Shown here: piece by piece, positions 3,316-31,100 of the stretch
How positions within the stretch are numbered: the first letter of the stretch is position 1
Layout of the letters: each line of letters begins with the position of its first letter
UHGV virus genome: UHGV-0390076
Strand: one strand, 5' to 3'
DNA: 40,692 nt
Source of the DNA: a virus
The notes under the pieces: model-generated
Database searches by the model: none
Seen by the model: the letters and a program-made list of their open reading frames with translations, nothing else
What the model was told of the DNA's origin: nothing
Made by a program: the position numbers and the translations under genes

Positions 3316-4267
3316 CATATTAAGCATCCTGAACGGGGCTACCTTAGCAGAAACAGAGCGGACAGAGGAGTATCAGGATATCGTGTTGGATTATCGGGAC
3401 ATTGTAGTCACCAATCATAATAAATACAGCATGGTGGAAATTCAGGAGCTGGCAACAGGGATTCTGATGACCGGAGGCCTGCAGGCCCCGCTGGTAGTCG
3501 GCAGGGTATCCGGGGAGTATTGGCTCTTATCGGGACACAGGAGGTATTCAGCCCTCAGGCAGTTGATACAGGAAGGAAATAGGGAGTATGAAAAGATACC
3601 ATGCCGATACAAGGATATGGACAAGCTGCAGTTCCGGATGGAACTTTTATGCGGGAATACGTTTAACCGGAAGTTGTCTGATTATGACCTGATGATGCAG
3701 GCTCAGGAGTGGAAGGAAATCCTGACTGAAATGAAAACAAGTGGAGCGCTTGTCCTGAATAAGGGAGAGCGGATCCGGGACTATGTGGCTCAGATATTGG
3801 GAGAATCCAGTGGGAAGATAGGGCAGCTGAATGCGATATATAAGAGTGCTCCGGAGGAAGTCAAGGAGAAATTCCAGTCTGGTGAGATGGGAATTACATC
3901 GGCTTATGAAGCTTCCCGGACGGTAGAGCCACAGGAAGAACCCCAGCCGGATGAAAAGAGCCTGGAAATACAGAAAAAGGCAGAGGAAAAACGTGTGTCA
4001 GAATCTGACACAAAGGGGCAGAGGGACGAGCTCTATCATGAGCCGGATATGGAGGCGGTGGAAACACCAGAAAAATCTGTGGAATATGACAGGGATACTC
4101 TGCTGTGGATGATTAGGGATGCGGAGGAAACCATGGAGCAGATGAAGGAATATTGGATTTCTAATGATCCTGAAATCTATACAAAGAATGCCATGAAGAT
4201 ACAGGCATACAAGCTGTTATTGGAGCAGCATGACAGGGGTATTATCTCCTGCCCCCACAGGAGTTGA
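3305..4267 (+). CDS. parB: ParB-like nuclease/partition domain protein
   Basis: ParB N-terminal domain motif GGLQAPLVV...LLSGHRRYSA; overlaps the parA stop. Confidence 0.75.
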   Translation: MAFDILSILNGATLAETERTEEYQDIVLDYRDIVVTNHNKYSMVEIQELATGILMTGGLQAPLVVGRVSGEYWLLSGHRRYSALRQLIQEGNREYEKIPCRYKDMDKLQFRMELLCGNTFNRKLSDYDLMMQAQEWKEILTEMKTSGALVLNKGERIRDYVAQILGESSGKIGQLNAIYKSAPEEVKEKFQSGEMGITSAYEASRTVEPQEEPQPDEKSLEIQKKAEEKRVSESDTKGQRDELYHEPDMEAVETPEKSVEYDRDTLLWMIRDAEETMEQMKEYWISNDPEIYTKNAMKIQAYKLLLEQHDRGIISCPHRS

Positions 4268-4324
4268 TACATATATAAAACAACGGTTCAGATTGCGGTA
4301 TGTCACAAATACCTTTTGACCGAT

Positions 4325-7760: not shown

Positions 7761-7926
7761 AACTGACATTTAGCATAGGAGGGGATACCAATGCAGCCAG
7801 AAAATACTAAGCAACTAGACATAAAAAGAGGCAGATCACCAACCGCCCAAGGTCCTGTGATCCGCCGTTTTGCTTAAGATAAGTATATCATATATACCCT
7901 TCTTAAGCAAGGATAAGGAGGATATT

Positions 7927-8961
7927 ATGAACGATAATATAAAAAGCCAGGTTATAAATGATGTAATCGTTGCCATGACAATGTATATCAGTTCAGAGGC
8001 CTTACAGATTTTAGAGAAGGTTATAACGGAAGAACTGGTAAATGTATCCATTGAAAAAATGAATACATTGCCAATGGAAATGAAGGACAGTATTGACCAG
8101 CAAAACGAATACATAATCAAACTCTTCCTATATAAAAAGAAAAAGCTGAGTGAAGGAACGAAGTACGGCTATATGAGTGCGGTCAAACGTCTGATTACCT
8201 TATTATATAAGCCATTGACCCAGATGGATGAGCAGGACATATTTTATTATCTTGATTGGTATGAGCACAGGAATGAAAAAGATACTGGAAAAAGGAACCT
8301 GCCGCAGACGATCAATAATGAAAGGCGCTTTCTTTCAGCGTTTTTTACTTGGATGCGGAAGGAAAAAATGATTGCCGTGAATCCAGTAGAAGCCATTGAA
8401 CCGTTAAAAGTGCAGAGGAAACCAATAGATTTTTTCTCAGCGGAGGAAATGGCCCGTCTGAAAGATGGCTGCCAGACACTGCGGGAGAGGGCACTGATTG
8501 AGGTACTGCGCAGCACTGGCGCCAGAGTGGGAGAAATTGTCCAGATAACCATAGATCAGCTTGATTGGGAAACAGGGGATATCCTGATTCTGGGAGAAAA
8601 AGGAAATAAGTACCGCACAATATATCTGGATGCAGATGCTCTATATCATTACCGGAAATACTGGGAATCTCGGACTGACAATACGGAACATATGTTTGTT
8701 ACTGAAAGAAAGCCGTATCATTCGATCAGTACAAGCTCTGTAAGGTCAATCATGAAAGCAGTGGCTGCCAGAGTGGGAGTCACTAACAGATGCTATCCCC
8801 ATAAAATGCGTAAAACATTGGGAATGGATCTGAAAAATAAAGGTGTGGATATTGGTACAATACAGGAAGTAATGGGACATGCTGATTCGAGGGTGACAAG
8901 CCAGTATTATGCTCAGTCAACACCCGATACTCTTAGGATGGTAAGAAAACGTGCAGCATAA
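7927..8961 (+). CDS. tyrosine site-specific recombinase (phage-integrase / Xer-like family)
   Basis: C-terminal catalytic signature ...HKMRKT...LGH...SQYY (R-H-R-Y family); AAGGAGG RBS before ATG 7927. Confidence 0.8.
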   Translation: MNDNIKSQVINDVIVAMTMYISSEALQILEKVITEELVNVSIEKMNTLPMEMKDSIDQQNEYIIKLFLYKKKKLSEGTKYGYMSAVKRLITLLYKPLTQMDEQDIFYYLDWYEHRNEKDTGKRNLPQTINNERRFLSAFFTWMRKEKMIAVNPVEAIEPLKVQRKPIDFFSAEEMARLKDGCQTLRERALIEVLRSTGARVGEIVQITIDQLDWETGDILILGEKGNKYRTIYLDADALYHYRKYWESRTDNTEHMFVTERKPYHSISTSSVRSIMKAVAARVGVTNRCYPHKMRKTLGMDLKNKGVDIGTIQEVMGHADSRVTSQYYAQSTPDTLRMVRKRAA

Positions 8962-9096: not shown

Positions 9097-10041
9097 ATGA
9101 GACATTACGATGATTATGATCTGGAACAGGCATATGATGAGCAGGCAGATAAGCTCCAGGAATGGGAAATAGAAAAACTGGTGTCGCAGCAGGGATTAAG
9201 CTGTCTGTATCGGACTACTACCAATAGGGCAAAGAACATAATCAGCGGGAATGAGCTTCTGGAATCCCAGGTGTATCCGTCATTTTTCAGAAAGTCAGAT
9301 ATGCCTGTAACTGTGAAGAGACGGGAAACCAAGCCGTCACAAAAGAATCTGAATGATAAAAATTCCCGGAGATACTGCATCCGGCTGGCGTGTATTAACT
9401 TTGGGGAGGGTGACATTTGGGCTACCTTTGGCTGGAATGAGGAGAATATACCCGCAGATATCAAAGCAGCACAGAAGGATATAAGGAATTTTATACGACG
9501 GGTCAATTACTGGAGAAAGAAAAAGGGGATGGGGAATATTAAGTATATCTATATTCTGGCATTTGATGGGAAGGTGCGTCCTCATTTCCACATCCTGCTG
9601 ACAGGAGAAGGTATGGATCGGGATGAGCTGGAAGATATGTGGGAGAAATGCGACCGGAAGAATACACGCCGGATCAAGCCTGATGAAAACTTTCTGATTA
9701 CCGGCCTTGCTACATACATTACCCAAAACCCACGTGGGACAAAAAGATGGTGTGCTTCCAAAAATCTGAAAAAGCCGCCTGAGCCTACTAGGAGCTATAG
9801 CAAATTCCGGAAAAGACGGGTAAATTTGATGGTGCAGTCCCACGAAGCCATGAAGGAGGAGATGGAAAAGGCATATCCGGGATATACATTTCTGGATGCA
9901 GAGGTCAAATATAACAAAGAGCTGGCATTATTTTACATATATGCCCGGCTTATTAAGCATGGCAGCGGCCCGAAAAAGGCCGCTTGTAAGAGTACAAAAA
10001 AATATGTCAGGAAGCCGGAGGTGGGGAAGAATGCAGGATGA
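9097..10041 (+). CDS. putative HUH-motif replication initiator / relaxase-like protein
   Basis: HUH-type motif PHFHILL followed ~45 aa later by a Tyr-containing LATYITQ; position expected for a replication gene; weak. Confidence 0.3.
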   Translation: MRHYDDYDLEQAYDEQADKLQEWEIEKLVSQQGLSCLYRTTTNRAKNIISGNELLESQVYPSFFRKSDMPVTVKRRETKPSQKNLNDKNSRRYCIRLACINFGEGDIWATFGWNEENIPADIKAAQKDIRNFIRRVNYWRKKKGMGNIKYIYILAFDGKVRPHFHILLTGEGMDRDELEDMWEKCDRKNTRRIKPDENFLITGLATYITQNPRGTKRWCASKNLKKPPEPTRSYSKFRKRRVNLMVQSHEAMKEEMEKAYPGYTFLDAEVKYNKELALFYIYARLIKHGSGPKKAACKSTKKYVRKPEVGKNAG

Positions 10042-10494: not shown

Positions 10495-11019
10495 ATGGCG
10501 AGACCAAAATGGACAGAGTGGGAGAACAGGAAAGACAATCTGAATGTGCTGAGCGCATGGGCAAGGGCAGGACTTACAGACGAACAGATTGCAAAGCATA
10601 TAGGGATAAGCAGATCAACCCTGTCAGAATGGAAAAAGAAATATCCCAATATTGCGGAGGCCCTCAATACGGGGGAAGAATTTTCTAACAGACTGGTAGA
10701 ACACAGCCTGTATAAGATGACCCAGGGCTTCCATGTCTCAGTGAAGAAAGCAATTAAAGTTAAAAAGATAGAGTATGATCCTTCTGGAAAGAAGATATCA
10801 GAAAAAGAGGAGATAGAGCTGGCAGAGGAAACAGAATATATCAAGCCGGATATAAAGGCGATTATATTCTATGCAAAAAACAGAATGCCGGAGAGTTGGA
10901 AAGAGCGTGTGACTACTGAGCCGGAAGAAAATGAAAATGGAATTATTGTGTTGACTCCTGCCAAAGTGACAGAATTGAAGGAGATGATAAAGGATGAGGA
11001 AGAAAAAGGAAACGGATAA
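10495..11019 (+). CDS. terminase small subunit (putative)
   Basis: N-terminal HTH (LTDEQIAKHIGISRSTLSEW); immediately upstream of and overlapping the large terminase. Confidence 0.55.
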   Translation: MARPKWTEWENRKDNLNVLSAWARAGLTDEQIAKHIGISRSTLSEWKKKYPNIAEALNTGEEFSNRLVEHSLYKMTQGFHVSVKKAIKVKKIEYDPSGKKISEKEEIELAEETEYIKPDIKAIIFYAKNRMPESWKERVTTEPEENENGIIVLTPAKVTELKEMIKDEEEKGNG

Positions 11020-12466
11020 AAAAATACCGCATATTGTGTGGGAGCCACTGCCCAAACAATCCCTTATGATGTCTCGGATGGAATTTGAAGCACTATATGG
11101 CGGAGCGGCAGGCGGTGGAAAAAGTGATTACCTTCTGGTTGAAGCATTGCGTCAAGTCCATATTTCTCATTACAGGGCGGTTATTTTCCGAAAAACGTAC
11201 CCTGAAACGGAAGATCTGATAAGCAGAAGTCAGGAGCTATATGGAGCAGCATTTCCAAAAGCTACCTACAATAAATCAAGCCATGTGTGGACTTTTCCAA
11301 GTGGAGCAAAGATCTATTTTGGTTCCATGCAGCATACAAAGGACCGGCTGAAATATCAGGGCCGCCATTTTGATTTTGTCGGGTTCGATGAATTGACCCA
11401 TTTTGCAAAAGAAGAGTATGAATATATGTTTTCCCGTACCCGGTCATCAGGCCCAGGATTAAGGACGTATATCCGTTCTACTGCAAACCCAGGTGGCCCA
11501 GGTCATGCATGGGTCAAGGCACGTTTTGTTTCTCCGGCGCCTCCAGGCACACCGATTATAGCAGAAACAGAGATACATGTCCCCGGAGGGGAAGTTGAAA
11601 AGCACCCATATGAGCGGATTTTTATTCCCAGCAGTGTATTTGATAACCCGATTCTGTTGAAAAACAACCCCAATTATGTTGTGGGTCTGGCTATGATGTC
11701 AGAGGCTGAAAAGAAAGCTTTGTTGTATGGTGACTGGGATTCCTTTATGGGTCAGGTATTTACGGAATGGAGCAATGATCCAGAGAATTATGATACTAGG
11801 GAATGGACACATGTAATTGAGCCATTTAAGATTCCTGATGGGTGGATCATAGGGCGCAGCTATGATTTTGGTTACGCAAAACCATTCTCTGTAGGGTGGT
11901 ATGCGGTGGATTATGAAGGGTGTGTATACCGGATCAGGGAATTGTATGGCTGCAAGGAAGGAGAAGCGAATGTGGGACTTAAACTTGATCCGGCGGAACA
12001 GGCGAGGATGATCCGTGAGGTAGAAGAAACAGATGAAAATCTGAAAGGCCGGAAGATAACAGGGATTGCTGACCCTTCCATTTTCGCATCGGACAGGGGA
12101 AAATCCATTGCGGATATTATGGCGGAACAGGGAGTGTACTGGGAACCGGGGGATAACCACCGGATTGCGGGAAAGATGCAGTATCATTACCGGTTGGCAT
12201 TTAACAAGGACGGTCATCCTCTCTTTTATGTGTTTAATACCTGCAAAGGATTCATAAGGACAATCCCGTCCTTGGTATATGACGAAAAGCATGTTGAGGA
12301 TATTGATACCACTCAGGAAGACCATATTTATGATGAGTGCCGTTATTATCTCATGGACCATCCAATTGCAAAAAGGGAAAATACAGTGCGAAAGCCTCCT
12401 ATGGAAGATCCGCTTGACCTTTACAAAGAGGAGCGGAAGAGGGCTTATAAATTTATCAGGATATAG
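10994..12466 (+). CDS. terL: terminase large subunit
   Basis: Walker A GGAAGGGKS, Walker B-like VGFDELTHF, nuclease-like C-terminal half; 490 aa. Confidence 0.85.
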   Translation: MRKKKETDKKIPHIVWEPLPKQSLMMSRMEFEALYGGAAGGGKSDYLLVEALRQVHISHYRAVIFRKTYPETEDLISRSQELYGAAFPKATYNKSSHVWTFPSGAKIYFGSMQHTKDRLKYQGRHFDFVGFDELTHFAKEEYEYMFSRTRSSGPGLRTYIRSTANPGGPGHAWVKARFVSPAPPGTPIIAETEIHVPGGEVEKHPYERIFIPSSVFDNPILLKNNPNYVVGLAMMSEAEKKALLYGDWDSFMGQVFTEWSNDPENYDTREWTHVIEPFKIPDGWIIGRSYDFGYAKPFSVGWYAVDYEGCVYRIRELYGCKEGEANVGLKLDPAEQARMIREVEETDENLKGRKITGIADPSIFASDRGKSIADIMAEQGVYWEPGDNHRIAGKMQYHYRLAFNKDGHPLFYVFNTCKGFIRTIPSLVYDEKHVEDIDTTQEDHIYDECRYYLMDHPIAKRENTVRKPPMEDPLDLYKEERKRAYKFIRI

Positions 12467-12475
12467 GAGAAGAAT

Positions 12476-14353
12476 ATGGATCTGGCAGAGGTAAAGAAAC
12501 AAAGAATTGAAAAGAAAGAGATTGATGATGCATATGCAAGGCTTCAGGAGTATAAGAAAGGGAAATCATCCCTTGAAAAGAGGATTGTTAATGCGGAAGA
12601 ATGGTGGAAGCAGAATCATTGGGAACGTTTTGCTTCCGACAGCACGAACCCCAATGATACAAAACCAGTAAGTGCCTGGTTATTTAACAGTTTGATCAAT
12701 AAACACGCAGACTTTATGGATAATTACCCATGTCCGGCAATCCTTCCCAGAGAGGAATCAGATGAGGAAGCAGCCAAAATCCTTTCAGAAGTTGTGCCGG
12801 TTATTTTGGAACAGAATGATTTTGAAAAAACTTACAGCCTGTGCTCTTGGGATAAACCTAAAACAGGAACGGCTATATATGGCGTTTTTTGGAACAGGGA
12901 TAAGGAAAACGGTCTGGGGGATGTGGATATAGAAGTACAGGATATCATGAATATCTATTGGGAGCCAGGAATCCGGGATATACAGGAATCCAGAGAGATT
13001 TTTACTACAAGCCTGGTTGATATTGACATATTAAAACAGCTGTATCCACATGCCCAGGAAGAAATTAAGGGAACAGGGGAGCTGATCCATTCAGAGTATA
13101 TCCATGAGGACACCATAGACACATCAAAGAAAGTTCAGGTGATCGACTGGTATTATAAGCGCAGGATGCCCTTAAAAAACAGCGGTGTAAGGAATGTACT
13201 GCATTACTGCAAGTTTATACCAGGTGTGGTACTGTACGCATCAGAAAATGATAAGGAACTGATGCACAAAGGATGGTATGACCATGGAAAATATCCTTTT
13301 GTGTTTGATGTCATGTTTCCTGAAAAGGCAAGCCCGGCAGGGTTTGGATATCTGGATGTGATGGTTAATCCGCAGGAGTACATAGATAAACTGGATGGGG
13401 TGATTTTAAAAGCAGCATCCTTAAACCGTCCCAGATACTTTGTAAGCAGTGGAGTGAATACAGATGATTTTACTGACCTGACAAGGGATATCATAGAGGT
13501 GGGAGGTGCAGTTGATGAGACGCGGATCAGGCAGATCCAGCCGCCACAGCTATCTGAGTATGTCATCAATATGCGAACCCAGAAGATTGAGGAATTAAAA
13601 GAGACCAGTGGAAACCGGGACTTTTCACAGGGATCTACAACCTCAGGAGTAACAGCAGCATCTGCGATAGCGGCGCTGCAGGAGGCAGGGAGCAAGTTGA
13701 GCCGTGATATGATAAAGGCAAGCTATACGGCCCATGCAGAGGTTGTGACCTTTGTGGTGGAGCTGATCCGTCAGTTTTATACTCTTCCCCGAAGTTACCG
13801 AATCACACAGCCGAACGGGACAGCAGAGTATGTTATGCTGGATAACAGCATATTGGGAGAAGAACATATTACCATGCTGGATAATGAAATTATGACCCGT
13901 AAACCAGTGTTTGATATCAAAATATCTGCACAGAAAGCAAGCCCATATAGCCGTATTGCAACCAATGAGCTGGCAAAAGAACTCTTTGGTCTGGGGGTAT
14001 TCAATCCACAGATTGCCGATCAGGCGAAAGCAGTAGTGTCTATGATGGATTTTGACCGGAAGGATGAGGTTTTAAAGAAGATTGAAGAAAACGGAACCAT
14101 GTACCAACAGATTCAGCAGATGAAGCAGCTGTTGATTCAGCTGGCGGGTATGGTGTCTGATTTCAGCGGAAGGCCGGATCTTATGGAAGCGGTCAATGCC
14201 ATGGTAGGACAAGATACAATCGCCATGACAGGGGTTAATGTAAACAGTAGTGATATTAAGACTAACAGCTTGGGGCAGGCAGTAGATACAGGGAACGGGA
14301 CAGCCGGAAAGGCAAGAAGAAGGGTACAGGAATCCACGGAGGTAGCACGGTGA
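12476..14353 (+). CDS. portal protein (putative)
   Basis: 625-aa ORF directly after terL and before the protease/scaffold/capsid genes; GGAG RBS. Confidence 0.6.
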   Translation: MDLAEVKKQRIEKKEIDDAYARLQEYKKGKSSLEKRIVNAEEWWKQNHWERFASDSTNPNDTKPVSAWLFNSLINKHADFMDNYPCPAILPREESDEEAAKILSEVVPVILEQNDFEKTYSLCSWDKPKTGTAIYGVFWNRDKENGLGDVDIEVQDIMNIYWEPGIRDIQESREIFTTSLVDIDILKQLYPHAQEEIKGTGELIHSEYIHEDTIDTSKKVQVIDWYYKRRMPLKNSGVRNVLHYCKFIPGVVLYASENDKELMHKGWYDHGKYPFVFDVMFPEKASPAGFGYLDVMVNPQEYIDKLDGVILKAASLNRPRYFVSSGVNTDDFTDLTRDIIEVGGAVDETRIRQIQPPQLSEYVINMRTQKIEELKETSGNRDFSQGSTTSGVTAASAIAALQEAGSKLSRDMIKASYTAHAEVVTFVVELIRQFYTLPRSYRITQPNGTAEYVMLDNSILGEEHITMLDNEIMTRKPVFDIKISAQKASPYSRIATNELAKELFGLGVFNPQIADQAKAVVSMMDFDRKDEVLKKIEENGTMYQQIQQMKQLLIQLAGMVSDFSGRPDLMEAVNAMVGQDTIAMTGVNVNSSDIKTNSLGQAVDTGNGTAGKARRRVQESTEVAR

Positions 14354-14715
14354 CAAAGGTAGATATAAGCATAAAAGAAAATAAATTCTGGATGCATTCT
14401 GAGGGACACGCAGGATGGGGAAAAGCGAACGGGCTTGAAGATGGGCATGATATTGTATGTGCTGCTATATCTATCCTGACACAGACAGCAGCACAGCGCC
14501 TGATGGATATGGAAGCAGAGGGAAACGTACGTCTGGTCAGCCTTAGAGTGGAACCGGGGATTGTAGATATGGAGGCAGAGGCTTATGGGACAGAAGACAG
14601 GGTGAAAGAGCTGGCAGAAACCATGAAAACAGGTTTTGATTTGATCCATAAAGCATATGAATTCTATGTGATTCTGGGGTGGGAGAAAAATGATTTTGAA
14701 TGTGATACAGTATAA
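14350..14715 (+). CDS. prp: Prp-family cysteine protease (ribosomal-processing protease homologue)
   Basis: Conserved SEGHAGW...GHDIVCAAIS motif with catalytic His/Cys; GTG start overlaps the portal stop (GTGA). Confidence 0.8.
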   Translation: MTKVDISIKENKFWMHSEGHAGWGKANGLEDGHDIVCAAISILTQTAAQRLMDMEAEGNVRLVSLRVEPGIVDMEAEAYGTEDRVKELAETMKTGFDLIHKAYEFYVILGWEKNDFECDTV

Positions 14716-14783
14716 ATAAGACACGCGGGAGAGACCGCAGGGAAAGACAAGACGCGCGGGAAAGACCGCAGGAAGGAGACTTC

Positions 14784-15635
14784 ATGAAAAGAGTCAGACT
14801 GAATTTGAGATTATTTGAAGGAGAAGGCGGAGAAGCGGGAGCAGGCTCATCAGCAGAACAAACGGGAGAAAATGTCCAGAACACCACTGGAAGCGATGCG
14901 GCAGAGGAATCCCATGAAGAAACGCCGGAAGAACGGAAAGCGGCATATGACCAGTTTAAAATCCAGTATAAGGATCTGTACAGCGCAGATGTAAAGGAGC
15001 AGGTAGGCAGAAGGTTTAAATCTGAACAGCAGATGCAGAAACAGCTTGATTCATATAGTCCTTTGATGTCTATGCTTGGGATGCGTTACGGAATTAAGGA
15101 GCCGGATGTTACAAATGTGATGGAAGCAATCGAAGCTGATAACTCATTCTGGGAAGAGCAGGCCATGAAAGAAAACATGACTGTGGATCAGCTCAAACAT
15201 ATGCGAAAGCTGGAAGCAGAAAACCAGCGACTTGTGGAAGCTGGACGGAATGCAGAACAGATTAGGCAGCGTGATGATACATATGAGCGGTGGGATAGGG
15301 AAAGTGAACAGTGTAAACAGTTATTCCCGCAGTTTGATATGAGATCTGAATGTAACAATCCCCAGTTTGTAAAGCTCCTTGGAGCGGGATTTGACATCAC
15401 AAGCGCCTATAAAGCAGTTCACTTTGATGAGATCACCAGAGGAATGATGCAGCAGACCGAAAAAGACACAAAGAAACGAGTAGCAGACAGTATCCGTTCA
15501 GGAAGCAGCCGTCCGGCAGAGAATGGTGCTTCCGGCCCTGCCAATGCAGCAAAGATGGATGTATGGTCCCTTTCAAAAGAGGAATTTCATAAAATGCTTG
15601 ATAGGGTAAAGCAGGGGGAACGGATTGAGATTTAA
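14784..15635 (+). CDS. scaffolding protein with a Prp-cleavable N-terminal leader
   Basis: N-terminus MKRVRLNLRLFEG; acidic, helical, Glu/Gln-rich; sits between protease and capsid genes. Confidence 0.65.
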   Translation: MKRVRLNLRLFEGEGGEAGAGSSAEQTGENVQNTTGSDAAEESHEETPEERKAAYDQFKIQYKDLYSADVKEQVGRRFKSEQQMQKQLDSYSPLMSMLGMRYGIKEPDVTNVMEAIEADNSFWEEQAMKENMTVDQLKHMRKLEAENQRLVEAGRNAEQIRQRDDTYERWDRESEQCKQLFPQFDMRSECNNPQFVKLLGAGFDITSAYKAVHFDEITRGMMQQTEKDTKKRVADSIRSGSSRPAENGASGPANAAKMDVWSLSKEEFHKMLDRVKQGERIEI

Positions 15636-15648
15636 TGGAGGAACATGA

Positions 15649-16656
15649 ATGAAGGAAATGCTGGTATTAAATTTACGGCTTTTTGAAGGCCCGGAAAATG
15701 TGACTACATCTTCAGGAATGAAGGTGGAGATGAAAGTTGTCTATGACCGTACATTGTTGGAAAATGCACAGCCTGCATTAGTACATGACCAGTTTGCACA
15801 GACCAGAAACATTCCACGTAATGGTGGTAAGACTATTGAGTTTAGAAAATATGATGAGTTTGGTAAGGCATTAACACCGTTAACGGAGGGAGTAACGCCA
15901 GATGGTCAGACCCTGAATGTAACAAAGTTGGAGGCAACGGTAAAGCAGTATGGCGGATATGTTGCATTGTCTGATCTGTTAGAGCTGACGGCAATAGATA
16001 ATAACATTGTTGAGGCTAGCCAACTTCTGGGGAATCAGGCAGGAAAAACACTGGATACTGTCAGCCGTGAAGTATTAAATGCTGGAACAAACGTGCAGTA
16101 TGCAGATGGACAGGTTAAATCCAGAGCTGCACTGACAAAAGACCACAAACTGACAGTAACGGCAGTCAAGAAAGCAGTTAGATTCCTGAAAAAGCAGAAT
16201 GCAAAGAAGATCAATGGATATTATTACGCAATCATACATCCAGACTGCTCCTATGATCTGAGGGAAGATGACCGTTTTATTGATGCTGTCAAATACAAGA
16301 ATCCTGAACGGATCTACCAGGGTGAGATTGGTGAGATCGAGGGTGTGCGTTTTATTGAGACTACAGAGGCTAAGATCTGGGCCAAAGCCGGGGCAGAAGA
16401 TGCCGGTAATGATAATCAGAAGATTGATGTGTACTCCACGCTTATTTTTGGAGCGAATGCATACGGAACTACTACTGTGGAGGGGAACGGACTGGAAACC
16501 ATTATTAAGCAGCTTGGAAGTTCCGGATCAGCGGATCCATTAAACCAGAGAGCAACGGTAGGCTGGAAGGCTCTTAAAGCGACAGAGATCCTTTCACAGC
16601 CGTATATGATAAGAATTGAGAGCGCTTCAACGTTCAGCGACGGACAGGCTAACTAA
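15649..16656 (+). CDS. major capsid protein (HK97-like) with a Prp-cleavable N-terminal leader
   Basis: N-terminus MKEMLVLNLRLFEG; 335 aa; follows the scaffold gene. Confidence 0.7.
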   Translation: MKEMLVLNLRLFEGPENVTTSSGMKVEMKVVYDRTLLENAQPALVHDQFAQTRNIPRNGGKTIEFRKYDEFGKALTPLTEGVTPDGQTLNVTKLEATVKQYGGYVALSDLLELTAIDNNIVEASQLLGNQAGKTLDTVSREVLNAGTNVQYADGQVKSRAALTKDHKLTVTAVKKAVRFLKKQNAKKINGYYYAIIHPDCSYDLREDDRFIDAVKYKNPERIYQGEIGEIEGVRFIETTEAKIWAKAGAEDAGNDNQKIDVYSTLIFGANAYGTTTVEGNGLETIIKQLGSSGSADPLNQRATVGWKALKATEILSQPYMIRIESASTFSDGQAN

Positions 16657-23182: not shown

Positions 23183-24751
23183 ATGGGAAGATTACCAATG
23201 CTGTCAATGACCCCCAAAGGGAGTAATAAGCAACTGGGCGCCTTTGGGGGGCTGAATAAGGGGCTTGTGATCGGGGATAATGAGTTTTCTGATATGAAAA
23301 ATATGTGCTCCGATCAGTTCCCAGCTATTGCCGTGAGGAAGCCGCGGGGGGAGATCATAAAGAAACTGGAAAAGCCTCATGGGCTGTTCTGGAAAAATGG
23401 ACTGGCCTACGCAGATGGTACAAAGCTGTACTATCAGGACAAAGAAATTGGAACCGTCACAGATACGGATAAGCAGATGGTTGGAATGGGCGCTTACATT
23501 GTTATATTCCCGGATAAGCTGATGTATAACACATCCACAGGGGAGCTGAAAGGATTGGAGGCATCCTGGACACAGGGAGCAGCCGCCACATTCGCGCAGA
23601 CAACCACAGGAAGCACCATGGTGAAAATCAGCTGTACGGGAATCGGAAGCGGCTTTTCTCAGTTTGACGGGGTAGAGATTTCGGGATGTACCAATGCTGA
23701 ATTTAATAAAACCACAGTGATCCAGGAGCTGGCAGCTGATTACATCATCATTGTAGGAAACCTGAAAGAGACGTTCACCCAGGATTCAGGTCTTAAAATC
23801 ACCCGTAAAACCCCCGATATGGATTATATCTGTGAGAATGGGAACCGGATCTGGGGCTGCTCCAGCAAAAACCATGAAGTTTATTCCAGTAAGCTGGGGG
23901 ACCCTACGAACTGGCAGGCATATGAGGGGATAAGCACGGATTCCTACGCCGCTACTGTGGGGAGTGACGGGGATTTCACAGGCTGTCTGTCCCATATGGG
24001 CTACGTTTTATTCTTCAAGGAAGATGTAATACATAAAGTCTTTGGAGATAAGCCAAGCAATTACCAGATCAATACTACTTCCCCAGTGCGTGGAATTGCC
24101 AAAGGCTGTGAGAAAACAGCCTGCATCGTAAATGAAACACTGCTGTATGTGTCACGGAATAATGTGTGCAGCTATGATGGGGCCTATCCAGAATCTGTAT
24201 CGGATGCACTGGCAGAGACCCGTTTCTCCGGCGGTGTAGCCGGGCAGTATAACGGAAAATACTACGCTTCCCTGAGTGATGCATCCGGTAACTGGAACCT
24301 GTATGTATATGATCTCAAAAAGGGGATGTGGCACAGGGAAGACAACCTTCATGCACTTTTTATGGTCTATGGGGAAGGACAGCTCTATTGTATTGACGCG
24401 AATCATAACCTGTTTACCATTTCAGGAACCCGCGACGAATACATTGAATGGATGATAGAGAGCGGGGATATGATGGACGGGACCGTTGAATTTAAATATC
24501 TGAGGCGGCTGTTGTTCAACCTTCTGTTGGAGCCGGGAAGTGAAGTGGATGTATTCCTGAAATGTGACGGGGAACCGGAATTTCGGAAGAAGATTTCTTT
24601 TACTTCTACTGGATATAGAACGCAGACCCTGAATGTGATACCGGACCGGTGCCAGCGTTACCGTTTCCGTCTGGAGGGAAACGGACCGGCGGCATTGATC
24701 GCATTGAGCAAATATATAGGCTACGGGAGTGATATTCATGGCTGTATATAA
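23183..24751 (+). CDS. putative tail/baseplate structural protein (522 aa)
   Basis: Large ORF immediately upstream of the tail-fibre genes. Confidence 0.4.
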   Translation: MGRLPMLSMTPKGSNKQLGAFGGLNKGLVIGDNEFSDMKNMCSDQFPAIAVRKPRGEIIKKLEKPHGLFWKNGLAYADGTKLYYQDKEIGTVTDTDKQMVGMGAYIVIFPDKLMYNTSTGELKGLEASWTQGAAATFAQTTTGSTMVKISCTGIGSGFSQFDGVEISGCTNAEFNKTTVIQELAADYIIIVGNLKETFTQDSGLKITRKTPDMDYICENGNRIWGCSSKNHEVYSSKLGDPTNWQAYEGISTDSYAATVGSDGDFTGCLSHMGYVLFFKEDVIHKVFGDKPSNYQINTTSPVRGIAKGCEKTACIVNETLLYVSRNNVCSYDGAYPESVSDALAETRFSGGVAGQYNGKYYASLSDASGNWNLYVYDLKKGMWHREDNLHALFMVYGEGQLYCIDANHNLFTISGTRDEYIEWMIESGDMMDGTVEFKYLRRLLFNLLLEPGSEVDVFLKCDGEPEFRKKISFTSTGYRTQTLNVIPDRCQRYRFRLEGNGPAALIALSKYIGYGSDIHGCI

Positions 24752-25712
24752 GCCTTTGGTAATTGAAAAGAATGAAACCGATATAAAAAAGATCATGAGG
24801 CAGCTATACCGGTTCAGTGAGGACTTGAAATTTACCATCTCAAACCTGTCATTGGATGATAATTTTTCCAAGGAATCTCTGGATGCGATCACGGAGAGAG
24901 GAGAGACCGTCCGGAAGATCAAATTTGATACAGACGGTTTTTCGATAGAGTATGAAAATTATAAGACAGGAGTGCTTACAAGGCTGGGTCAGACAGAGGA
25001 TACCATTTCTTTTCTGGTTGATTCTGGGAGTGTGGTAAAAGAAATGCTGACCCGGATGGAGCTTCATGGGGAATATATACGCCTTACCAGCGGCCATATC
25101 CTTATCAACGCCCAGAATATGACACTGGATGCTGCAGGCAATGCCGTGTTTTCGGGAGCAATCAACGGCGGTTCTATCAATATTAACAACAGGTTTATTG
25201 TATATCCCAATGGGGACTGTTATGTAGATGATTCCCTGAAAACAGAGACCCTGAATCCGGCGCAAGGCGTGACAGCGGCAGATATGGAGGTATACAACGA
25301 TAATGATTATATCAATACCATAGGCCGGACAGTGACCTGCTCAGAAGCATATATTTCAGAAACGCTTTCATGCAACCGGGTGAGATACACATCAGATCAG
25401 CGGAAAAAGAGGGAGATTCATCCGCTTCCGGATGTATCCATGCTGATCCGGAATCTCAGGCCGGTACGTTACTGTATCAATGGCAGGGATACGATTGGGT
25501 ACATTGCTCAGGAAGTGCAAAAGTATGCTGTGTCAGAATCTGACACATATGAGTCAGACTGCATCCCGGCTGTGGGGCAGTCTAGGGAGTATATGGAATT
25601 GCCGTATTCCATGTACACTGCGGTTTACGCCAGAGCCATACAGGAACATCAGAAACGTTTGGACAGAATGAAGAGAGAACTTAAGGAGATGGGAGAGGAT
25701 GTCAAGTTTTAA
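24729..25712 (+). CDS. tail fibre/spike protein with a C-terminal S74 intramolecular-chaperone domain
   Basis: C-terminal SDQRKKREI... motif (Ser-Lys dyad of Peptidase_S74); central block is paralogous to the next gene. Confidence 0.7.
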   Translation: MIFMAVYKPLVIEKNETDIKKIMRQLYRFSEDLKFTISNLSLDDNFSKESLDAITERGETVRKIKFDTDGFSIEYENYKTGVLTRLGQTEDTISFLVDSGSVVKEMLTRMELHGEYIRLTSGHILINAQNMTLDAAGNAVFSGAINGGSININNRFIVYPNGDCYVDDSLKTETLNPAQGVTAADMEVYNDNDYINTIGRTVTCSEAYISETLSCNRVRYTSDQRKKREIHPLPDVSMLIRNLRPVRYCINGRDTIGYIAQEVQKYAVSESDTYESDCIPAVGQSREYMELPYSMYTAVYARAIQEHQKRLDRMKRELKEMGEDVKF

Positions 25713-26655
25713 TGTGCCTATGCTGGGAGGCCAGAATCCGGATATAAAAAAAGTATACAACTACATACAGCTTTTGAATGACCAGCTCCGCTACAGTCTG
25801 TCCAATATCACACCAGAGGATAATTTTGACCAGCAGTCATTTTTGAAATATCAGGAAACAGAAACCCATATAGCCCAGCTGGAAGTTACTATGAAGGGGT
25901 TTTTATCAGAGTTCCAGAACCTTCAGGACAATGTTTCTACCAGCATCAAAGTGCTGGACGGACAAATTGCATTAAAGGTAAGTAAAGACAAGCTGTGTTC
26001 GGAAATATCCGCTACGACAGAAGCAATCAATTTCAAAACCGGTTATCTAATCATTGATGCCAATAATTTTAAGCTGAATAAGGATGGGACGGCTACATTC
26101 AGCGGTACGATCAACGGCGGATCCATCAATATCAATAACCGGTTTGTGGTTACTTCTGCGGGGCAGGTCACGATTGATTCCATTACTTTTGCACAGGGTA
26201 TTGTGACCAATGGGCTGCTGTACACCAATTACATCCGCATATCTGGAAATGCAGATGTAGAAGGGACACTGACAGCTAAGACAATGAATGTAACGGGGGA
26301 TGTATCCTGCGAAACTCTGTTTGAGCGTTCAGACCGGAGGTTAAAAAACAATATCCGGGATATTCCGGATCAGACGGCGCTTAAGCTTGTGCTGGGGATG
26401 CGTCCCGTGACGTTCCGGTTCAGGGATACCGGGCAGAGGTCCATGGGGCTGATCGCTCAGGAAGTAGATGAGCTCCAGAAACGTCTGGGAACAGATCTTC
26501 CACTGGTGGATCATAGTGGAGAGTATCTGGCAATCCCATATGGAAACAACAGTGTGCTGTTTTCCGGGGCGATTCGGCAGCAGGGACGGGAAATAGAAGC
26601 ATTGGAAAAAGCTATAAGGAAAATAAAGGAGGCGCAAAATGAAAATTGTATATGA
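25699..26655 (+). CDS. tail fibre/spike protein paralogue with a C-terminal S74 intramolecular-chaperone domain
   Basis: SDRRLKNNI...LIAQEV motif; shares ...FSG(A/T)INGGSININNRF(I/V)V... with the previous gene. Confidence 0.7.
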   Translation: MSSFNVPMLGGQNPDIKKVYNYIQLLNDQLRYSLSNITPEDNFDQQSFLKYQETETHIAQLEVTMKGFLSEFQNLQDNVSTSIKVLDGQIALKVSKDKLCSEISATTEAINFKTGYLIIDANNFKLNKDGTATFSGTINGGSININNRFVVTSAGQVTIDSITFAQGIVTNGLLYTNYIRISGNADVEGTLTAKTMNVTGDVSCETLFERSDRRLKNNIRDIPDQTALKLVLGMRPVTFRFRDTGQRSMGLIAQEVDELQKRLGTDLPLVDHSGEYLAIPYGNNSVLFSGAIRQQGREIEALEKAIRKIKEAQNENCI

Positions 26656-28180: not shown

Positions 28181-31100
28181 ATGTCATTTAGCAGCAGACT
28201 AAAAGAGAAGGAAAAAGAGGGCATTAAAGAAAGCCGGGATTATCGTACACGAGGCTCATATGCTGAAAAAACGGAAGGCGCATTCTCAAAACGGATTGCA
28301 CAAAAGGAAAAAGGGAACAATATACAGAAAATACCACAGCCGGAAAAAAGTATTTTTTCAGAAATATCAAAACCGGAGATATCAAAAATTAAATCCATTC
28401 AGCCAGTATCTTCATATTTGTCCGGTTCTGCATCTTCTTCTAATAATATTCCATACGCCGCAGCACATCAGGATCAGAAGATGCATCAGAACATTGAGCA
28501 GAAGACGCAGGATTCAGCTCAGAAAAAGTGGGAAAATGCAAAGAAGCAGTATGAGCTGGATAAAATAGGTTTTCAGTCTGGAAAACGTTTTATCAATTAC
28601 AGTACCATTCCGCAAAGATCAGATTATGAAACTGGAATCAAGGAAGGAATGGATAAACCGAATCTGTTCAGCAATGAGATATACGGTCTGATGGATTATC
28701 TTGATCCAGAAAAGAGAGAAGTTTCCAAAGCGAGTAAATATAACTTCACCCGCATGAATGAGGATGAAAAGAATATATACTATTATCTGAATGGAAGATT
28801 CGGGGCAGAGGCAGCTGGAAACTATATTAAGTCGATCAACAGGGAGCTGAATGAAAGAAATATAGAGGCTGTAGTGGGGAGTGCAAAAGAACTGGGGAAA
28901 GAGCATCCGGTATTTTCTTCTGTTCTGGATGCGGCTATTGCTCCGGTTACAGCGGGAGCATATCCGGCTGTGCTTGCTGGACAGGCAGCAAATACAATTA
29001 GCGGGAAATATGAACCAATGGATCCAAATGATAAGTATTTAGGGCAGGCTGCCATATTGGAAGGCTTGCGTGCTGGCGTTGCGGAAAACGAGGGGATTAA
29101 GAATGTAATCCCCAATCAAACCGCCCGTGAGTTCCTAGTAGGGACGGGAATGTCCATAGGTGAAAATATAGCCCGTCTGCCATTTGGAGCATACGGCCTT
29201 GCGGCGGCAGCCGGAAGTGCCGGCCTGTCAGGGACACGGGATGCAGCTGAAAGAGGGGGAACAACCGGACAGGCTGTAGCCTCAGGTGCAGTTAATGCGG
29301 CGGCAGAGGCGTTTTTTGAAAAATTCTCTCTGGATGGACTGGAACGGTTTAAGGTATCACCGGGCAGAGGCGTTAAGGAGTTCCTTAAAAATGTGGGGAA
29401 ACAGGCTATTACAGAAGGATCAGAAGAGACAGCAACGGAAATTGTCAATACATTATCGGATGCTGTGATTATGAAGGAACTCTCTCAGTACAATCAGGCA
29501 TACCAGGAGTATAAGAAAGCTGGTGCAGATGATGGGACTGCAAAGAGGGAGGCTTTTATGGGTCTACTGAAAAATGTAGGGCTGGCAGGTCTGGGCGGTG
29601 CCATATCCGGCGGGATTATGGGCGGAGGAAGTCAGGCTCTGGGAAATGTAGGTCTCAGCTATTATGGCAGTAAGATTGATCAGGATTACAGAGACTACGC
29701 AGATTCGATAGATACAGATCCGGCGTATTATGTCCGCCTGGAGGATGCCAGGGAAGCACAGGAATTACAAAGGACAGCTCAGGAATACGCAGAATTACAG
29801 CGCCAGGGCAGGTATGTGCCGAACCGGGATAAGGCAGAATATGATATCCGTATGAATCGGTTCATGGATAATTTACAGACCCGCTCACAGGAGCCCGTAC
29901 GCCCTCAGGATACAGTTGAAGTACCTATGGATGATAAAACTACCGTTGAGCCTGAAATAACCAGTACAGAGCCAGTAAATCGTCAGCTTGCGGAAAACCA
30001 TGTGATGTCGGAAACAGTATCAAAAGTAAACAAAAGCGTATCAAAATCACAGGAAAGTATCTCTCAATCCACACAGCCTGTACAGTCACAGACAACGGAG
30101 GATATAAAACAAAGCGGGGCTTATAAAGGCGCTTATGGAAAATATGGGAGAGAGGCGCTGTTGGATACCTATGACGGAACGGTAGAGGTATCGGTGTATA
30201 ATAAAGCCTTTGGTCGCGCCTATGATGCCGGATACCATAACATGGACCTGGACATGGCAGAACATTCCGCCATTATGTCTGTATTGACAGATAAGCAGAT
30301 CAAAGCAGCATATCGGGCAGGTATACAGGATTATAATGCTGATAATAAGGTGATTCCTCAGTATACACAGGGGGAAGCCAGAAATGGCGGTCTTGGCAGT
30401 GTGTCAGAGCTGGCAGGACAGGATCAGCGCAGAGTAGCAGACTATATAGGAAAAAAGACCGGGCTTAAAATCAATCTGATAGACAGCATGGAGGATGGAG
30501 CCACAGCATCCTATAAAAGCGGTGAGATTACCATAGATGTAGGCTCAAAAGACTTCAATGGAGCTATGTCTCATGAATTAACGCATTTCATCAAGGAACA
30601 GGTCCCAAAAGCATATGAAGCCTATCAGACCACTGTAGTAGAGGCGGAAATGAAAGCCTCCGGCAGATCATGGGAAGATTTGATAGAATCCTATGAAAGA
30701 AGATACGCAGAAGCAGGACAGGAGCTAACACGTCAGGAGGTCATTGAGGAGATTGTGGCAGATGCTACACAGAAATTTTTTAATGATCCCCAATTTATTG
30801 ATGCCGTAATTAAAAAGGATAAAAAGCTTGCCCAGCGCATTATAGATTTCCTTACAGATATAGTGGATTCAATTAAGAACTTAATCCAGACCGGAAGCAC
30901 CAGAGCAGCAGCTAAGAATCTGGAGGAAAATGCGAAGCTGTATGAAGAAGCACGTGATATTTGGATGTATGGGCTGGAAAAGGCAGGAGAAAGTTATAAG
31001 AGCGGACAGAGCAGGGAACGCTCTTCTGTGCCATCAACATCAGAAAAACAGTCAGAGGTAGAAAGTAGTGGTATAATCTTGAAGGATGTCCGCTTTCAGT

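Follow-up and report, generated by a model that had tools for sequence, protein, structure and literature searches.

The locus described here raises the question of whether a phage can own a protease of the family that matures ribosomal protein L27 in bacteria, and use it on its own head proteins. To our knowledge, Staphylococcus phage 80alpha is the only phage whose head proteins are known to be trimmed by Prp. The original prediction, made from the sequence, placed a Prp-type protease gene just upstream of scaffold and capsid genes that both start with an L27-like leader, and took this to be the arrangement of 80alpha. The DNA analysed (the window, meaning the whole stretch of 40,692 nucleotides) comes from a temperate phage or prophage of gut Clostridia, with Lachnospiraceae probably being the host group. 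Its head module has the order terminase, P22-like portal, Prp, scaffold and N4-type capsid (Table 1), and the Prp gene lying within this module is indeed phage-encoded.

Table 1. Features of the head module and their positions in the window
Feature	Coordinates	Strand	Evidence
P22-like portal gene	12476..14353	+	PF16510, 105.8 bits; phrog_156 portal
Predicted Prp-family cysteine protease gene, 121 aa	14350..14715	+	PF04327; phrog_4478 'peptidase'; PDB profile; Foldseek
Prp active-site segment G19-H20 ... C37 (predicted)	14404..14460	+	His20 codon 14407-14409; Cys37 codon 14458-14460
Two ACGCGGGARAGACCGCAGG copies, Prp-scaffold spacer	14723..14772	+	copies at 14723-14741, 14754-14772
Putative scaffolding protein gene, 283 aa	14784..15635	+	position and composition; phrog_13908, no assigned function
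Scaffold leader MKRVRLNLRLF, aa 1-11	14784..14816	+	sequence; co-varying leaders in relatives
Major capsid protein gene, N4-gp56 family (HK97 fold), 335 aa	15649..16656	+	TIGR04387; phrog_1357
Capsid leader MKEMLVLNLRLF, aa 1-12	15649..15684	+	sequence; leaderless relatives in alignment

The ORF downstream of the portal gene encodes a Prp-family protein

Portal stop and Prp start (GTG) overlap in the sequence GTGA, which suggests that the two genes are translationally coupled, and a GGAGG motif lies 7 nt 5' of the GTG. The translation of the ORF, which includes SEGHAGWGKANGLEDGHDIVCAAIS, matched the Pfam family PF04327 over residues 1-107 with 49.5 bits (gathering score 27; E 5.2e-13). In a profile search against the PDB, the ORF matched Prp of S. 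aureus (4peo/7kld; E 1e-8), with H20 aligned on His22 and C37 on Cys34, so that the His/Cys signature read from the sequence is in register with the known dyad. Alignment of the ORF to Prp, which the original prediction had set as a check, found both residues conserved; G19, H20, G32, D34, V36, C37 and S41 were invariant across 120 homologues. The two dyad residues are separated by 16 residues, compared with 11 in S. aureus Prp, and this spacing class makes up about 20 clusters in 1.84 billion representatives.

The Prp fold was also recovered in an AF2 model (pLDDT 90.5; elements E-E-H-E-E-H-E). The top 8 Foldseek matches of the model in the PDB were all Prp, with target-normalised TM-scores of 0.62-0.78, and the best were 7jvs, 7kld, 2g0j, 1s12 and 4peo. 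By family, modelled fold and aligned dyad, the product is a Prp-family protein of a long-loop subfamily, with His20/Cys37 as the predicted cysteine protease dyad (MEROPS C108).

Identity with the ribosomal-processing Prp, the bL27 enzyme, was considered and rejected. All eight NCBIfam Prp equivalog models scored far below their cut-offs (19-28 bits against 122-189; best 28.3 against 171, PRK14553), and the gene lies between portal and scaffold genes, not beside rplU and rpmA. The same portal-scaffold placement, and not the order rplU-prp-rpmA, was seen in the related loci. No classical prohead protease domain (S78/U35, S14 ClpP or S77) was detected by Pfam in the portal, the product of the 14350 ORF, the scaffold, the capsid or the products of the next two ORFs after the capsid gene.

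Scaffold and capsid carry a variant L27-like leader

Both downstream head genes begin with an L27-like leader at the positions predicted: the N-terminus encoded by ORF 14784-15635 is MKRVRLNLRLF|EGEGG, and that encoded by ORF 15649-16656 is MKEMLVLNLRLF|EGPEN. Common to both is the octamer LNLRLFEG (nt 14799-14822 and 15667-15690), whose two copies differ at 8/24 nucleotides, all synonymous; the repeat is therefore conserved as protein sequence and did not arise by recent duplication of the DNA. A scan of all six frames of the window found N[LIMV][QRKH]xF at the N-terminus of the scaffold and capsid ORFs only, and LNLRLFEG was the only exact 8-mer common to different window ORFs apart from those in a 13-mer of the adjacent ORFs 24729-25712 and 25699-26655. 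The leader is of the 80alpha type in a variant form, since it ends LF|E and not in the host-type FF|A, as had been noted from the sequence, and additionally has Arg for Gln at P3.

The 14784-15635 product is a putative scaffold, judged from its position between portal/Prp and capsid, its size and its acidic composition (12% Glu, with a Gly/Ala/Glu-rich stretch behind the leader). The ORF gave no Pfam, NCBIfam or PDB match, and homologues occupy the same position in all related loci. The capsid protein matched TIGR04387 with 326.6 bits (cut-off 60), residues 19-326 covering model positions 1-323 of 324, and the family model thus begins at residue 19, past the leader; PDB capsid matches were weak. 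In an alignment, the capsid proteins of Bacillus phage Pascal and Paenibacillus phage API480, which have no leader, start at the position of the predicted mature N-terminus. The predicted cut F11|E12 in the scaffold would give a mature mass of 31,047 Da (32,475 Da at full length), and F12|E13 in the capsid one of 35,397 Da (36,886 Da at full length).

Leaders co-vary with the resident Prp across related phages

A related capsid protein is encoded by more than 590 loci of IMG/VR, and species-representative genomes contain more than 480 such loci. In all, 278 related loci were compared; Prp and leader counts refer to the 168 distinct ones for which 3 kb or more of sequence upstream of the capsid gene was available. 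A Prp-like ORF was present in 136/168 of these, typically 0.9-1.4 kb upstream of the capsid gene, and in 124 of the 136 Prp-bearing loci both the scaffold and the capsid protein had a leader. Hundreds of Clostridia phages and prophages keep the gene order portal, Prp, scaffold, capsid, with the Prp gene holding its position across capsid proteins down to ~50% identity. Within a genome, the two leaders resemble each other: the mean best 7-mer score was 26.6 within and 18.6 between genomes, and none of 10,000 permutations reached the observed within-genome mean. Examples of such pairs are LNLHLH|D with LNLHMH|D, HFHMF|D with HFHMF|D, and YFLF|G with FYLF|D.

In these sequences the P3 and P1' residues of the leader also track the His-Cys spacing of the resident Prp, as an association and not as a code. 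With spacing 11, capsid P3 was Gln in 53/53 and P1' Ala in 48/53. With spacing 16, P3 was Arg in 14/16 capsids and 17/17 scaffolds, and P1' was Asp or Glu in the same proportions (14/16 and 17/17). Capsid P3 was Arg in all seven phages with spacing 12 (7/7), while with spacing 7 P3 was never Gln and capsid P1' was Asp in 26/31. Among the phages with spacing 11, scaffold P3 can be Arg, His, Lys or Asn and scaffold P1' Asp or Asn, and the closest genomic relatives of the window phage (L122 and L125, spacing 16) combine the leader NLQLF|A on the capsid with NLRLF|EGEG on the scaffold. The related loci are non-independent samples, and a rough estimate of the number of independent transitions, by parsimony on a neighbour-joining tree of the capsid proteins, gives ~20 changes each; the host L27 motif used for comparison comes from published Lachnospiraceae sequences, not from the host of this phage. 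Judged by spacing and leaders together, the window phage exemplifies a Prp subfamily in which a long loop goes with P3 Arg and an acidic P1'.

Some relatives differ in gene content. No Prp ORF was found upstream of the scaffold gene in L090, L147, L152, L155, L150, L165, L168, L191 and L201, the leaders of which are canonical and host-L27-like (Q..F|A); portal adjoins scaffold in L090-type loci, L168, L191 and L201. The L148 to L200 group has non-canonical leaders (DLTLF|DANP) and no Prp within 4 kb, and Pagevirus Pascal and API480 have neither a Prp gene nor leaders. L142, L162, L157 and L236 were counted as Prp-less and are probably detection failures; Prp-like motifs are present in L142 and L162, and L157 gave a weak match only (E 0.054).

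A phage-owned head-maturation protease is the favoured reading

We think it probable that the phage matures its head with this 121-aa Prp of its own, which cuts both leaders behind Phe, and that enzyme and leaders form a matched set that has drifted from the host L27 motif. In the mechanism that we infer from the sequences, a catalytically active phage Prp would recognise the hydrophobic leader xLNLRLF at the N-termini of scaffold and capsid and would cut after Phe at F11|E12 and F12|E13, removing 11 and 12 residues; the timing of the cuts relative to assembly and their independence from host Prp belong to the same inferred scheme. This would be the same act that host Prp performs on L27 and on the scaffold and capsid of 80alpha. 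The set would differ from the host's in an enzyme loop 5 residues longer than the host type and in substrates with Arg for Gln at P3 and Glu for Ala at P1'. The flexible loop of S. aureus Prp is hydrogen-bonded by the P3 Gln, and P1' is limited to small residues (PMC9405229); because of these contacts, a change of the loop together with changes at P3 and P1' would be mechanistically coherent. Enzyme and two substrates would then be the phage's own, off the host motif.

Host ribosomal Prp might instead cut the leaders as in 80alpha, the phage copy being redundant, a late boost of capacity or directed at another target such as host L27. This precedent, the L27-like core that the leaders retain (N-L-x-L-F, with Phe at P1), the canonical capsid leader of L122 and L125 and the leaders of Prp-less relatives, presumably served by host Prp, all speak for it. 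We nevertheless regard it as unlikely, for P3 Arg and P1' Glu deviate at positions described as critical or size-restricted in S. aureus Prp, and non-canonical leaders occur where a Prp is resident and vary with the loop class of that Prp. With the exception of the L148-L200 group, the confirmed Prp-less phages have canonical leaders only, and the conserved position of the Prp gene and its apparent coupling to the portal gene also speak against this reading.

Less probable still is that the leaders stay on as assembly or folding tags and that the Prp-like protein is a chaperone that binds them and does not cut. In 80alpha, cleavage is dispensable, a point that also weighs against the favoured reading; mutants whose scaffold or capsid cannot be cleaved are viable, and the scaffold leader is important for assembly, but not through its removal (PMC5744158). 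Assembly needs an intact scaffold N-terminus, and Prp has been suggested to act as a chaperone (PMC5744158; PMC9261936). Against a pure binder, for which they would be superfluous, stand the His, the Cys and the motif G-H...G-D-x-V-C-A-x-x-S, invariant in the 120 phage homologues, and the leaderless relatives show that the capsid fold has no need of the extension. A chance match or a functionless remnant of local duplication, as the shortness of the motif (8 residues) might suggest, is effectively refuted by the comparative data, namely the paired leaders in more than 120 distinct relatives, along with the synonymous differences between the copies and the lack of any further 8-mer common to different window ORFs outside the 13-mer.

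Returning to a phage-owned protease, a wider generalisation can be put forward only tentatively. Phage Prps may be a natural series of very small (~95-130 aa) site-specific proteases that have co-diversified with their two head substrates, loop length (spacing 6-7, 10, 11, 12 and 16) tracking P3 and P1', the long-loop subfamily having moved to Arg at P3 and an acidic P1' and become orthogonal to host Prp and L27, with repeated capture and loss. If this is true, host Prp would leave the phage substrates alone and the phage enzyme would spare host L27, protease and tag being an orthogonal pair. One capsid lineage shows three states, in which phages have their own Prp and diversified leaders, canonical leaders and no Prp, or neither, and these would trace how phages repeatedly captured and lost an enzyme of host ribosome maturation.

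Comparison with known systems

The scaffold (gp46) and capsid (gp47) proteins of 80alpha, like those of the window phage, both start with an L27-like leader; in 80alpha this leader of 11-14 residues (..NLQxF|A) is cut off behind Phe by a Prp-family cysteine protease (PMC5744158, PMC9405229). The proposed likeness to 80alpha holds for these leaders and fails for the gene arrangement: 80alpha lacks a Prp gene and relies on the essential ribosomal enzyme of its host, and its head module is SPP1-like (SPP1-type portal and minor head protein), unlike the P22-like portal and N4-gp56-type capsid found here. P3/P1' are Gln/Ala in 80alpha and Arg/Glu in the window phage. With bacterial Prp (YsxB; MEROPS C108; 4PEO, 7KLD, 2G0J, 2IDL, 1S12) the phage protein has in common the Pfam family, the fold, the His/Cys dyad, a similar size, an acidic pI (4.66; 4.45 for bacterial Prp) and a substrate motif with Phe at P1. 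Prp enzymes are site-specific endopeptidases that cut behind Phe in motifs of the type (N/D)LQ(F/L)F|A, an activity that is predicted for the phage protein. Unlike the bacterial enzyme acting on bL27, it has phage head proteins as its predicted substrates and an active-site loop longer by 5 residues.

A phage-encoded Prp is not special to the window, being found in hundreds of related Clostridia phages and also in the cultured phages phiFL3A, TP712 and DO134P1. The gene lies just after the portal gene in Enterococcus phiFL3A (gp45, annotated 'peptidase, DUF464' or 'ribosomal protein'), Lactococcus TP712 (orf36, 'unknown') and Dorea phage DO134P1 (an ORF without annotation). Their scaffold and capsid leaders are LLNLQFF|AEKD and MNLQIF|AAKT in phiFL3A, FNLQRF|AEEG and FNLQRF|SGDV in TP712, and MANLQLF|AEGD and LGLQVF|TAPD in DO134P1. 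Unlike the window phage, all three have the host-like His-Cys spacing of 11 and canonical or near-canonical leaders with Gln at P3, and the head module of phiFL3A is SPP1/80alpha-like. Prp genes of Lactococcus garvieae PLgT-1 ('peptidase' or 'ribosomal protein') and the Oenococcus Krappator phages ('peptidase') are listed from a tblastn match and annotation only. None of these genes appears to have been studied before, and a search of the accessible literature found no paper tying them to head-protein leaders.

Streptococcus phage Cp-1 also encodes a cysteine protease, a maturation enzyme that is the one other member of MEROPS clan CR besides Prp and that trims an N-terminal extension of its capsid protein (PMC9405229, PMC9261936). 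Compared by description only, it removes ~40 residues, with no L27-like motif reported, against the 11-12 predicted here. The classical prohead proteases (HK97-type S78/U35, ClpP-type S14, T4 gp21/herpesvirus-type S77/S21) occupy the same gene position between portal and scaffold/capsid and have the same task of head trimming. They are serine proteases of ~200 aa or more, usually packaged in the prohead, which cut large delta-domains or scaffolds at many sites; the window phage, in contrast, has a predicted cysteine protease of unrelated fold and catalytic type, 121 aa long, with an 11-12-residue tag and a single site.

Phages and prophages of gut Clostridia with a Prp of their own beside two tagged substrates thus form a very large group, and some well-known phages of lactic acid bacteria have the same equipment; this would turn the isolated case of 80alpha into a general head-maturation strategy. 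These loci offer natural enzyme/substrate pairs for the study of the specificity of Prp, an antibiotic target under study, and would give a concrete function to the 'DUF464 peptidase' and 'ribosomal protein' annotations that pipelines assign in phages. Small Prps with short linear tags could become orthogonal tag-removal proteases.

A hairpin pair separates the enzyme gene from the structural genes

Each ACGCGGGARAGACCGCAGG copy in the spacer between the Prp and scaffold genes forms a GCGG-N6-CCGC hairpin, with no copy expected by chance, and the RNA fold had z = -3.3. The hairpins are kept at the same place in relatives, with one compensatory variant, GCAG..CTGC, and may be a site of regulation or RNA processing that lies between the gene for the enzyme and those for the structural proteins.

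The ORF between the portal and scaffold genes belongs to the Prp family

The ORF upstream of the scaffold gene had been proposed to encode a Prp-type protease carrying the catalytic His/Cys signature, and the database and structural comparisons bear this out. Its product matches PF04327 at 49.5 bits against a threshold of 27 and falls into PHROG 4478, annotated 'peptidase'. A profile of nine phage homologues retrieved S. aureus Prp (4peo/7kld) with E 1e-8, and also matched the Prp structures of S. mutans, S. pneumoniae and T. maritima. H20 and C37 align with the catalytic His22 and Cys34 of the S. aureus enzyme, and when their conservation was checked in an alignment of 120 homologues both were invariant, together with G19, G32, D34, V36 and S41. 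The best eight PDB matches of the AlphaFold model (pLDDT 90.5) were all Prp structures, with TM-scores, normalised to the target, of at most 0.78. By Pfam match, dyad and fold, the product is a member of the Prp family, with predicted protease activity. The phage protein and the ribosomal enzyme are not orthologues, as the former scores 19-28 bits with the NCBIfam Prp equivalogs, below their cut-offs of 122-189, and its gene does not lie in an rplU-rpmA context.

The spacing between the catalytic His and Cys is 16 residues in this protein, compared to 11 in the enzymes of S. aureus, S. mutans and S. pneumoniae. When 1.84 billion cluster representatives were searched exhaustively with HMMER, only 146 matches had E <= 1e-3 and none E <= 1e-30; all of the 12 closest are members of one coherent subfamily of about 20 clusters with a spacing of 16 and the signature GHAG[YFW][GAR]......G.D[IL]VC[AS][AS]. 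Profiles (A1, A2) found relatives where single-sequence searches proved too weak: a word-indexed homologue search returned 3 matches, IMG/VR scanned with Prp alone none, phmmer against the PDB an E of 0.56, and tblastn against phages two weak matches.

Scaffold and capsid genes open with the same leader

The Prp-scaffold-capsid region lies within the late operon; the phage is temperate. The GTG start of the Prp ORF overlaps the portal stop (GTGA), with GGAGG 7 nt upstream of the GTG, and a 68-nt spacer separates the Prp and scaffold ORFs. Searches of Pfam, NCBIfam and the PDB with the putative scaffold gave no match in any of them.

Features of the window (strand and remarks where available)
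Feature	Coordinates	Strand	Remarks
Tyrosine recombinase	7870-8961	+	Early region, adjoins 9097-10041
REP_ORF2-G2P replication-initiator-like gene	9097-10041	+	Early region
Small terminase	10495-11019		Upstream of Prp ORF
Large terminase	10994-12466		Terminase_6N
Portal, P22-like	12476-14353		PF16510, 105.8 bits
Prp ORF	14350-14715	+	121 aa
Spacer hairpin, first copy	14723-14741		ACGCGGGARAGACCGCAGG
Spacer hairpin, second copy	14754-14772		ACGCGGGARAGACCGCAGG
Putative scaffold	14784-15635	+	283 aa, acidic; phrog_13908, function unknown
Major capsid protein	15649-16656	+	TIGR04387, N4-gp56 family, 326.6 bits (cut-off 60)
Probable tail-fibre gene	24729-25712	+	Shares 13-mer INGGSININNRF with next ORF
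Probable tail-fibre gene	25699-26655	+	Shares 13-mer INGGSININNRF with previous ORF
Presumed giant tail or internal virion protein	28181-35464	+	2427 aa
Large serine recombinase	36167-37684	-	Near end of window
HicB-like antitoxin	37933-38346	-	Near serine recombinase

The sequence strings quoted in the original prediction are exact, and LNLRLFEG is present at both N-termini, as residues 6-13 of the scaffold and residues 7-14 of the capsid protein. Between the copies, 8 of the 24 nucleotides differ, always synonymously. In a six-frame scan of the window, no other ORF had the motif at its N-terminus and, besides the 13-mer of the probable tail-fibre genes, LNLRLFEG is the only exact 8-mer common to different ORFs. 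Cleavage is predicted after the Phe (LNLRLF/EG; the slash marks the predicted cut, with P1 and P3 before it and P1' after it), by the mechanism of Staphylococcus phage 80alpha and of bL27 processing by Prp. Removal of the leader from the capsid protein would yield the semi-tryptic peptide EGPENVTTSSGMK in virions. In 80alpha, cleavage is dispensable; what matters is that the scaffold carries its leader (PMC5744158). The host L27 motif that we used, NLQFF/AHKK, comes from published Lachnospiraceae sequences (PMC9405229) and may not be that of the actual host.

The two copies of ACGCGGGARAGACCGCAGG in the Prp-scaffold spacer are hairpins of the form GCGG-N6-CCGC; by chance no copy would be expected, and the z-score of the RNA fold is -3.3. 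The motif lies in the same place in relatives, where one copy, in the L002 group, has a compensatory GCAG..CTGC change, and it is also found in the divergent phages L065, L184, L102, L088 and L233. Regulation or processing at these hairpins may set expression of the enzyme apart from that of the structural genes.

Gene order and leaders are maintained across related loci

We used the capsid protein as the anchor to collect related loci. Capsid relatives number at least 593 (IMG/VR) and at least 485 (genomes); among the matches listed, 278 loci were taken from IMG/VR, GTDB genomes and metagenome contigs, giving 203 distinct capsid sequences, for 168 of which the sequence extends at least 3 kb upstream. 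Leader cleavage sites were assigned with a scored picker. The hosts are nearly all Clostridia (Lachnospiraceae, Oscillospiraceae and relatives). A Prp-like ORF was found in 136 of the 168 loci. It typically precedes the capsid gene by 0.9-1.4 kb and, in the loci examined gene by gene, lies between portal and scaffold; in 124 of these 136, a leader can be recognised on the scaffold as well as on the capsid. Gene order was unchanged even where the Prp homologue was 28-34% identical to that of the window. Together, these comparative results support the proposed pairing of Prp with a leader-bearing scaffold and capsid, for which cleavage itself is predicted.

A 95%-identical Prp occurs in 119 blocks of a public assembly index, and the contigs examined were gut metagenome assemblies. 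Among the matches listed, the nearest genomic relatives are prophages; they are carried by 'Clostridium sp.' UMGS1169, where the capsid is 88% identical, and by Clostridium sp. AM22-11AC, Lacrimispora and Enterocloster. When cultured phages were searched with the module by blastn, no nucleotide relatives emerged: only three matches turned up, weak ones that spanned 3% of the query.

His-Cys spacing is associated with leader residues

The residues at P3 and P1' vary with the His-Cys spacing of the accompanying Prp, in counts that span related sequences and are not independent samples.

Leader residues by His-Cys spacing of Prp (related sequences, not independent samples)
Spacing	Capsid P3	Capsid P1'	Scaffold P3	Scaffold P1'
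11 (host-like)	Gln 53/53	Ala 48/53	Gln 33/48	Ala 18/48
16 (class of the window)	Arg 14/16	Asp/Glu 14/16	Arg 17/17	Asp/Glu 17/17
12	Arg 7/7	Asp 5/7	Arg 6/7	Asp/Glu 7/7
7 (GHATGSxxxCAA)	Never Gln	Asp 26/31	Never Gln	Asp 28/31

In the S. aureus enzyme, a hydrogen bond links the P3 Gln to the flexible His-Cys loop, and residue size is restricted at P1' (PMC9405229), so that an altered loop alongside altered P3 and P1' residues would be mechanistically sensible. A strict code in which loop length dictates P3 and P1' is ruled out by the spacing-11 phages, in some of whose scaffolds P3 is Arg, His, Lys or Asn and P1' is Asp or Asn, and by two spacing-16 loci (L122, L125) with an NLQLF/A capsid leader beside an NLRLF/EGEG scaffold leader. 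As read from these sequences, the link between spacing and specificity is an association, not a code. Parsimony on a neighbour-joining capsid tree required about 20 changes each for loop class, P3 and P1', suggesting repeated transitions or module exchange.

Scaffold and capsid leaders also match each other within a genome. The mean best ungapped 7-mer score between the two was 26.6 within genomes compared to 18.6 between genomes, and none of 10,000 random pairings reached the observed mean. Paired variants include LNLHLH/D with LNLHMH/D, where P1 is His in both, HFHMF/D with HFHMF/D, HTLMF/DG in both genes, YFLF/G with FYLF/D, and DIQRF/A with EIQRF/A.

A P1 other than Phe in both leaders was seen in a few phages. 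The His variant belongs to L229/L099, with a spacing of 9; in L094/L169 (spacing 11), NLQLM/S accompanies NLQLL/A or FLQLM/A, leaders that recall the NLQLL/A of C. difficile L27. In two other loci (L042:5877-6971 and L043:5885-6976), the called capsid genes open with a 25-residue hydrophobic stretch (MIKFLIFLALFVVLL...) before a DFIQLF/A leader, which is probably a mis-called start and not a signal peptide.

Relatives without Prp

Relatives without a Prp ORF upstream of the scaffold carry canonical, host-L27-like Q..F/A leaders (for example KFNLQHF/AAGD, NIQHF/AEGG, SLQFF/AEGA and DLQMF/ANEV), and in most of them the portal adjoins the scaffold. The capsid leader KFNLQHF/AAGD is nearly identical to that of 80alpha. 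By analogy with 80alpha, these canonical leaders are presumably cut by host Prp, making these relatives candidates for Clostridia phages that depend on host Prp. Two cultured relatives, Bacillus phage Pascal (Pagevirus) and Paenibacillus phage API480, have neither a Prp gene nor leaders, and their capsid N-terminus aligns with the start of the predicted mature capsid protein of the window. By these patterns of presence and absence, a single capsid lineage falls into three states: phages with their own Prp and diversified leaders, phages that lack Prp and have canonical leaders, and phages with neither.

The Prp-less loci with canonical leaders are L090, L147, L152 and L155, and also L150, L165, L168, L191 and L201; in the L090 type, the leader is on the capsid only and the scaffold has none. 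Another set (L148, L149, L153, L156, L159, L161, L164, L170, L188, L193 and L200) has a non-canonical capsid leader, such as KLDLTLF/DANP, and neither portal nor Prp within 4 kb upstream; no close relatives of this set were found in IMG/VR, where the best match was 72% identical. These loci may be rearranged or degraded prophages, or their Prp may be located elsewhere. Four calls of 'no Prp' (L142, L162, L157 and L236) are probably detection failures: Prp-like motifs are present in L142 and L162, and L157 gave only a weak match (E 0.054).

Prp genes in described phages

A phage-encoded Prp already exists as a database object and is not new as such. By tblastn, Prp genes are found in Enterococcus phiFL3A/B, where gp45 is labelled 'peptidase; DUF464' or 'ribosomal protein', in Lactococcus TP712 (orf36, annotated 'unknown'), and in L. 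garvieae PLgT-1, Latilactobacillus and Oenococcus phages. Phage phiFL3A combines its own Prp with the leaders LLNLQFF/AEKD (scaffold) and MNLQIF/AAKT (capsid), and therefore the Prp/leader arrangement exists in SPP1/80alpha-like siphophage modules too. TP712, also with its own Prp, has FNLQRF/AEEG on the scaffold and FNLQRF/SGDV on the capsid.

In the cultured Dorea phage DO134P1 (OP172779; locus L280, ~3990-4290), which infects Lachnospiraceae, an unannotated Prp ORF (..ISGHANYAACGQDIICAGV..) lies in the gap between two annotated genes, followed by scaffold and capsid genes with the leaders MANLQLF/AEGD and LGLQVF/TAPD.

The literature searched, its scope not extending to the original Prp papers (Wall et al. 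2015, 2017), describes no phage-encoded Prp with cognate leaders, and its Prp papers make no mention of phage-encoded homologues. There, the term 'phage-related' traces purely to the 80alpha discovery, and the only other named member of clan CR is the Cp-1 protease. On sequence grounds, the system in the window is best classed as a long-loop Prp that belongs to the phage, its leaders bearing P3 Arg and an acidic P1', within a P22-portal/N4-capsid head module, and as one of a large, essentially unstudied class of phage Prp/leader systems. The class is not surprising in principle; it generalises the one-off 80alpha observation and supplies directly testable enzyme/substrate pairs.

Other genes of the window

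The largest ORF listed downstream of the head module had no Pfam match at E <= 0.001, and its late-operon position points to the presumed virion role. The two neighbouring ORFs that share INGGSININNRF are probably paralogous tail-fibre genes, since Peptidase_S74 domains are present in the corresponding ORFs of a near-identical contig. A 246-aa ORF corresponds in position to an amidase plus choline-binding endolysin of near-identical contigs. The element also contains two recombinases, one tyrosine and one large serine.
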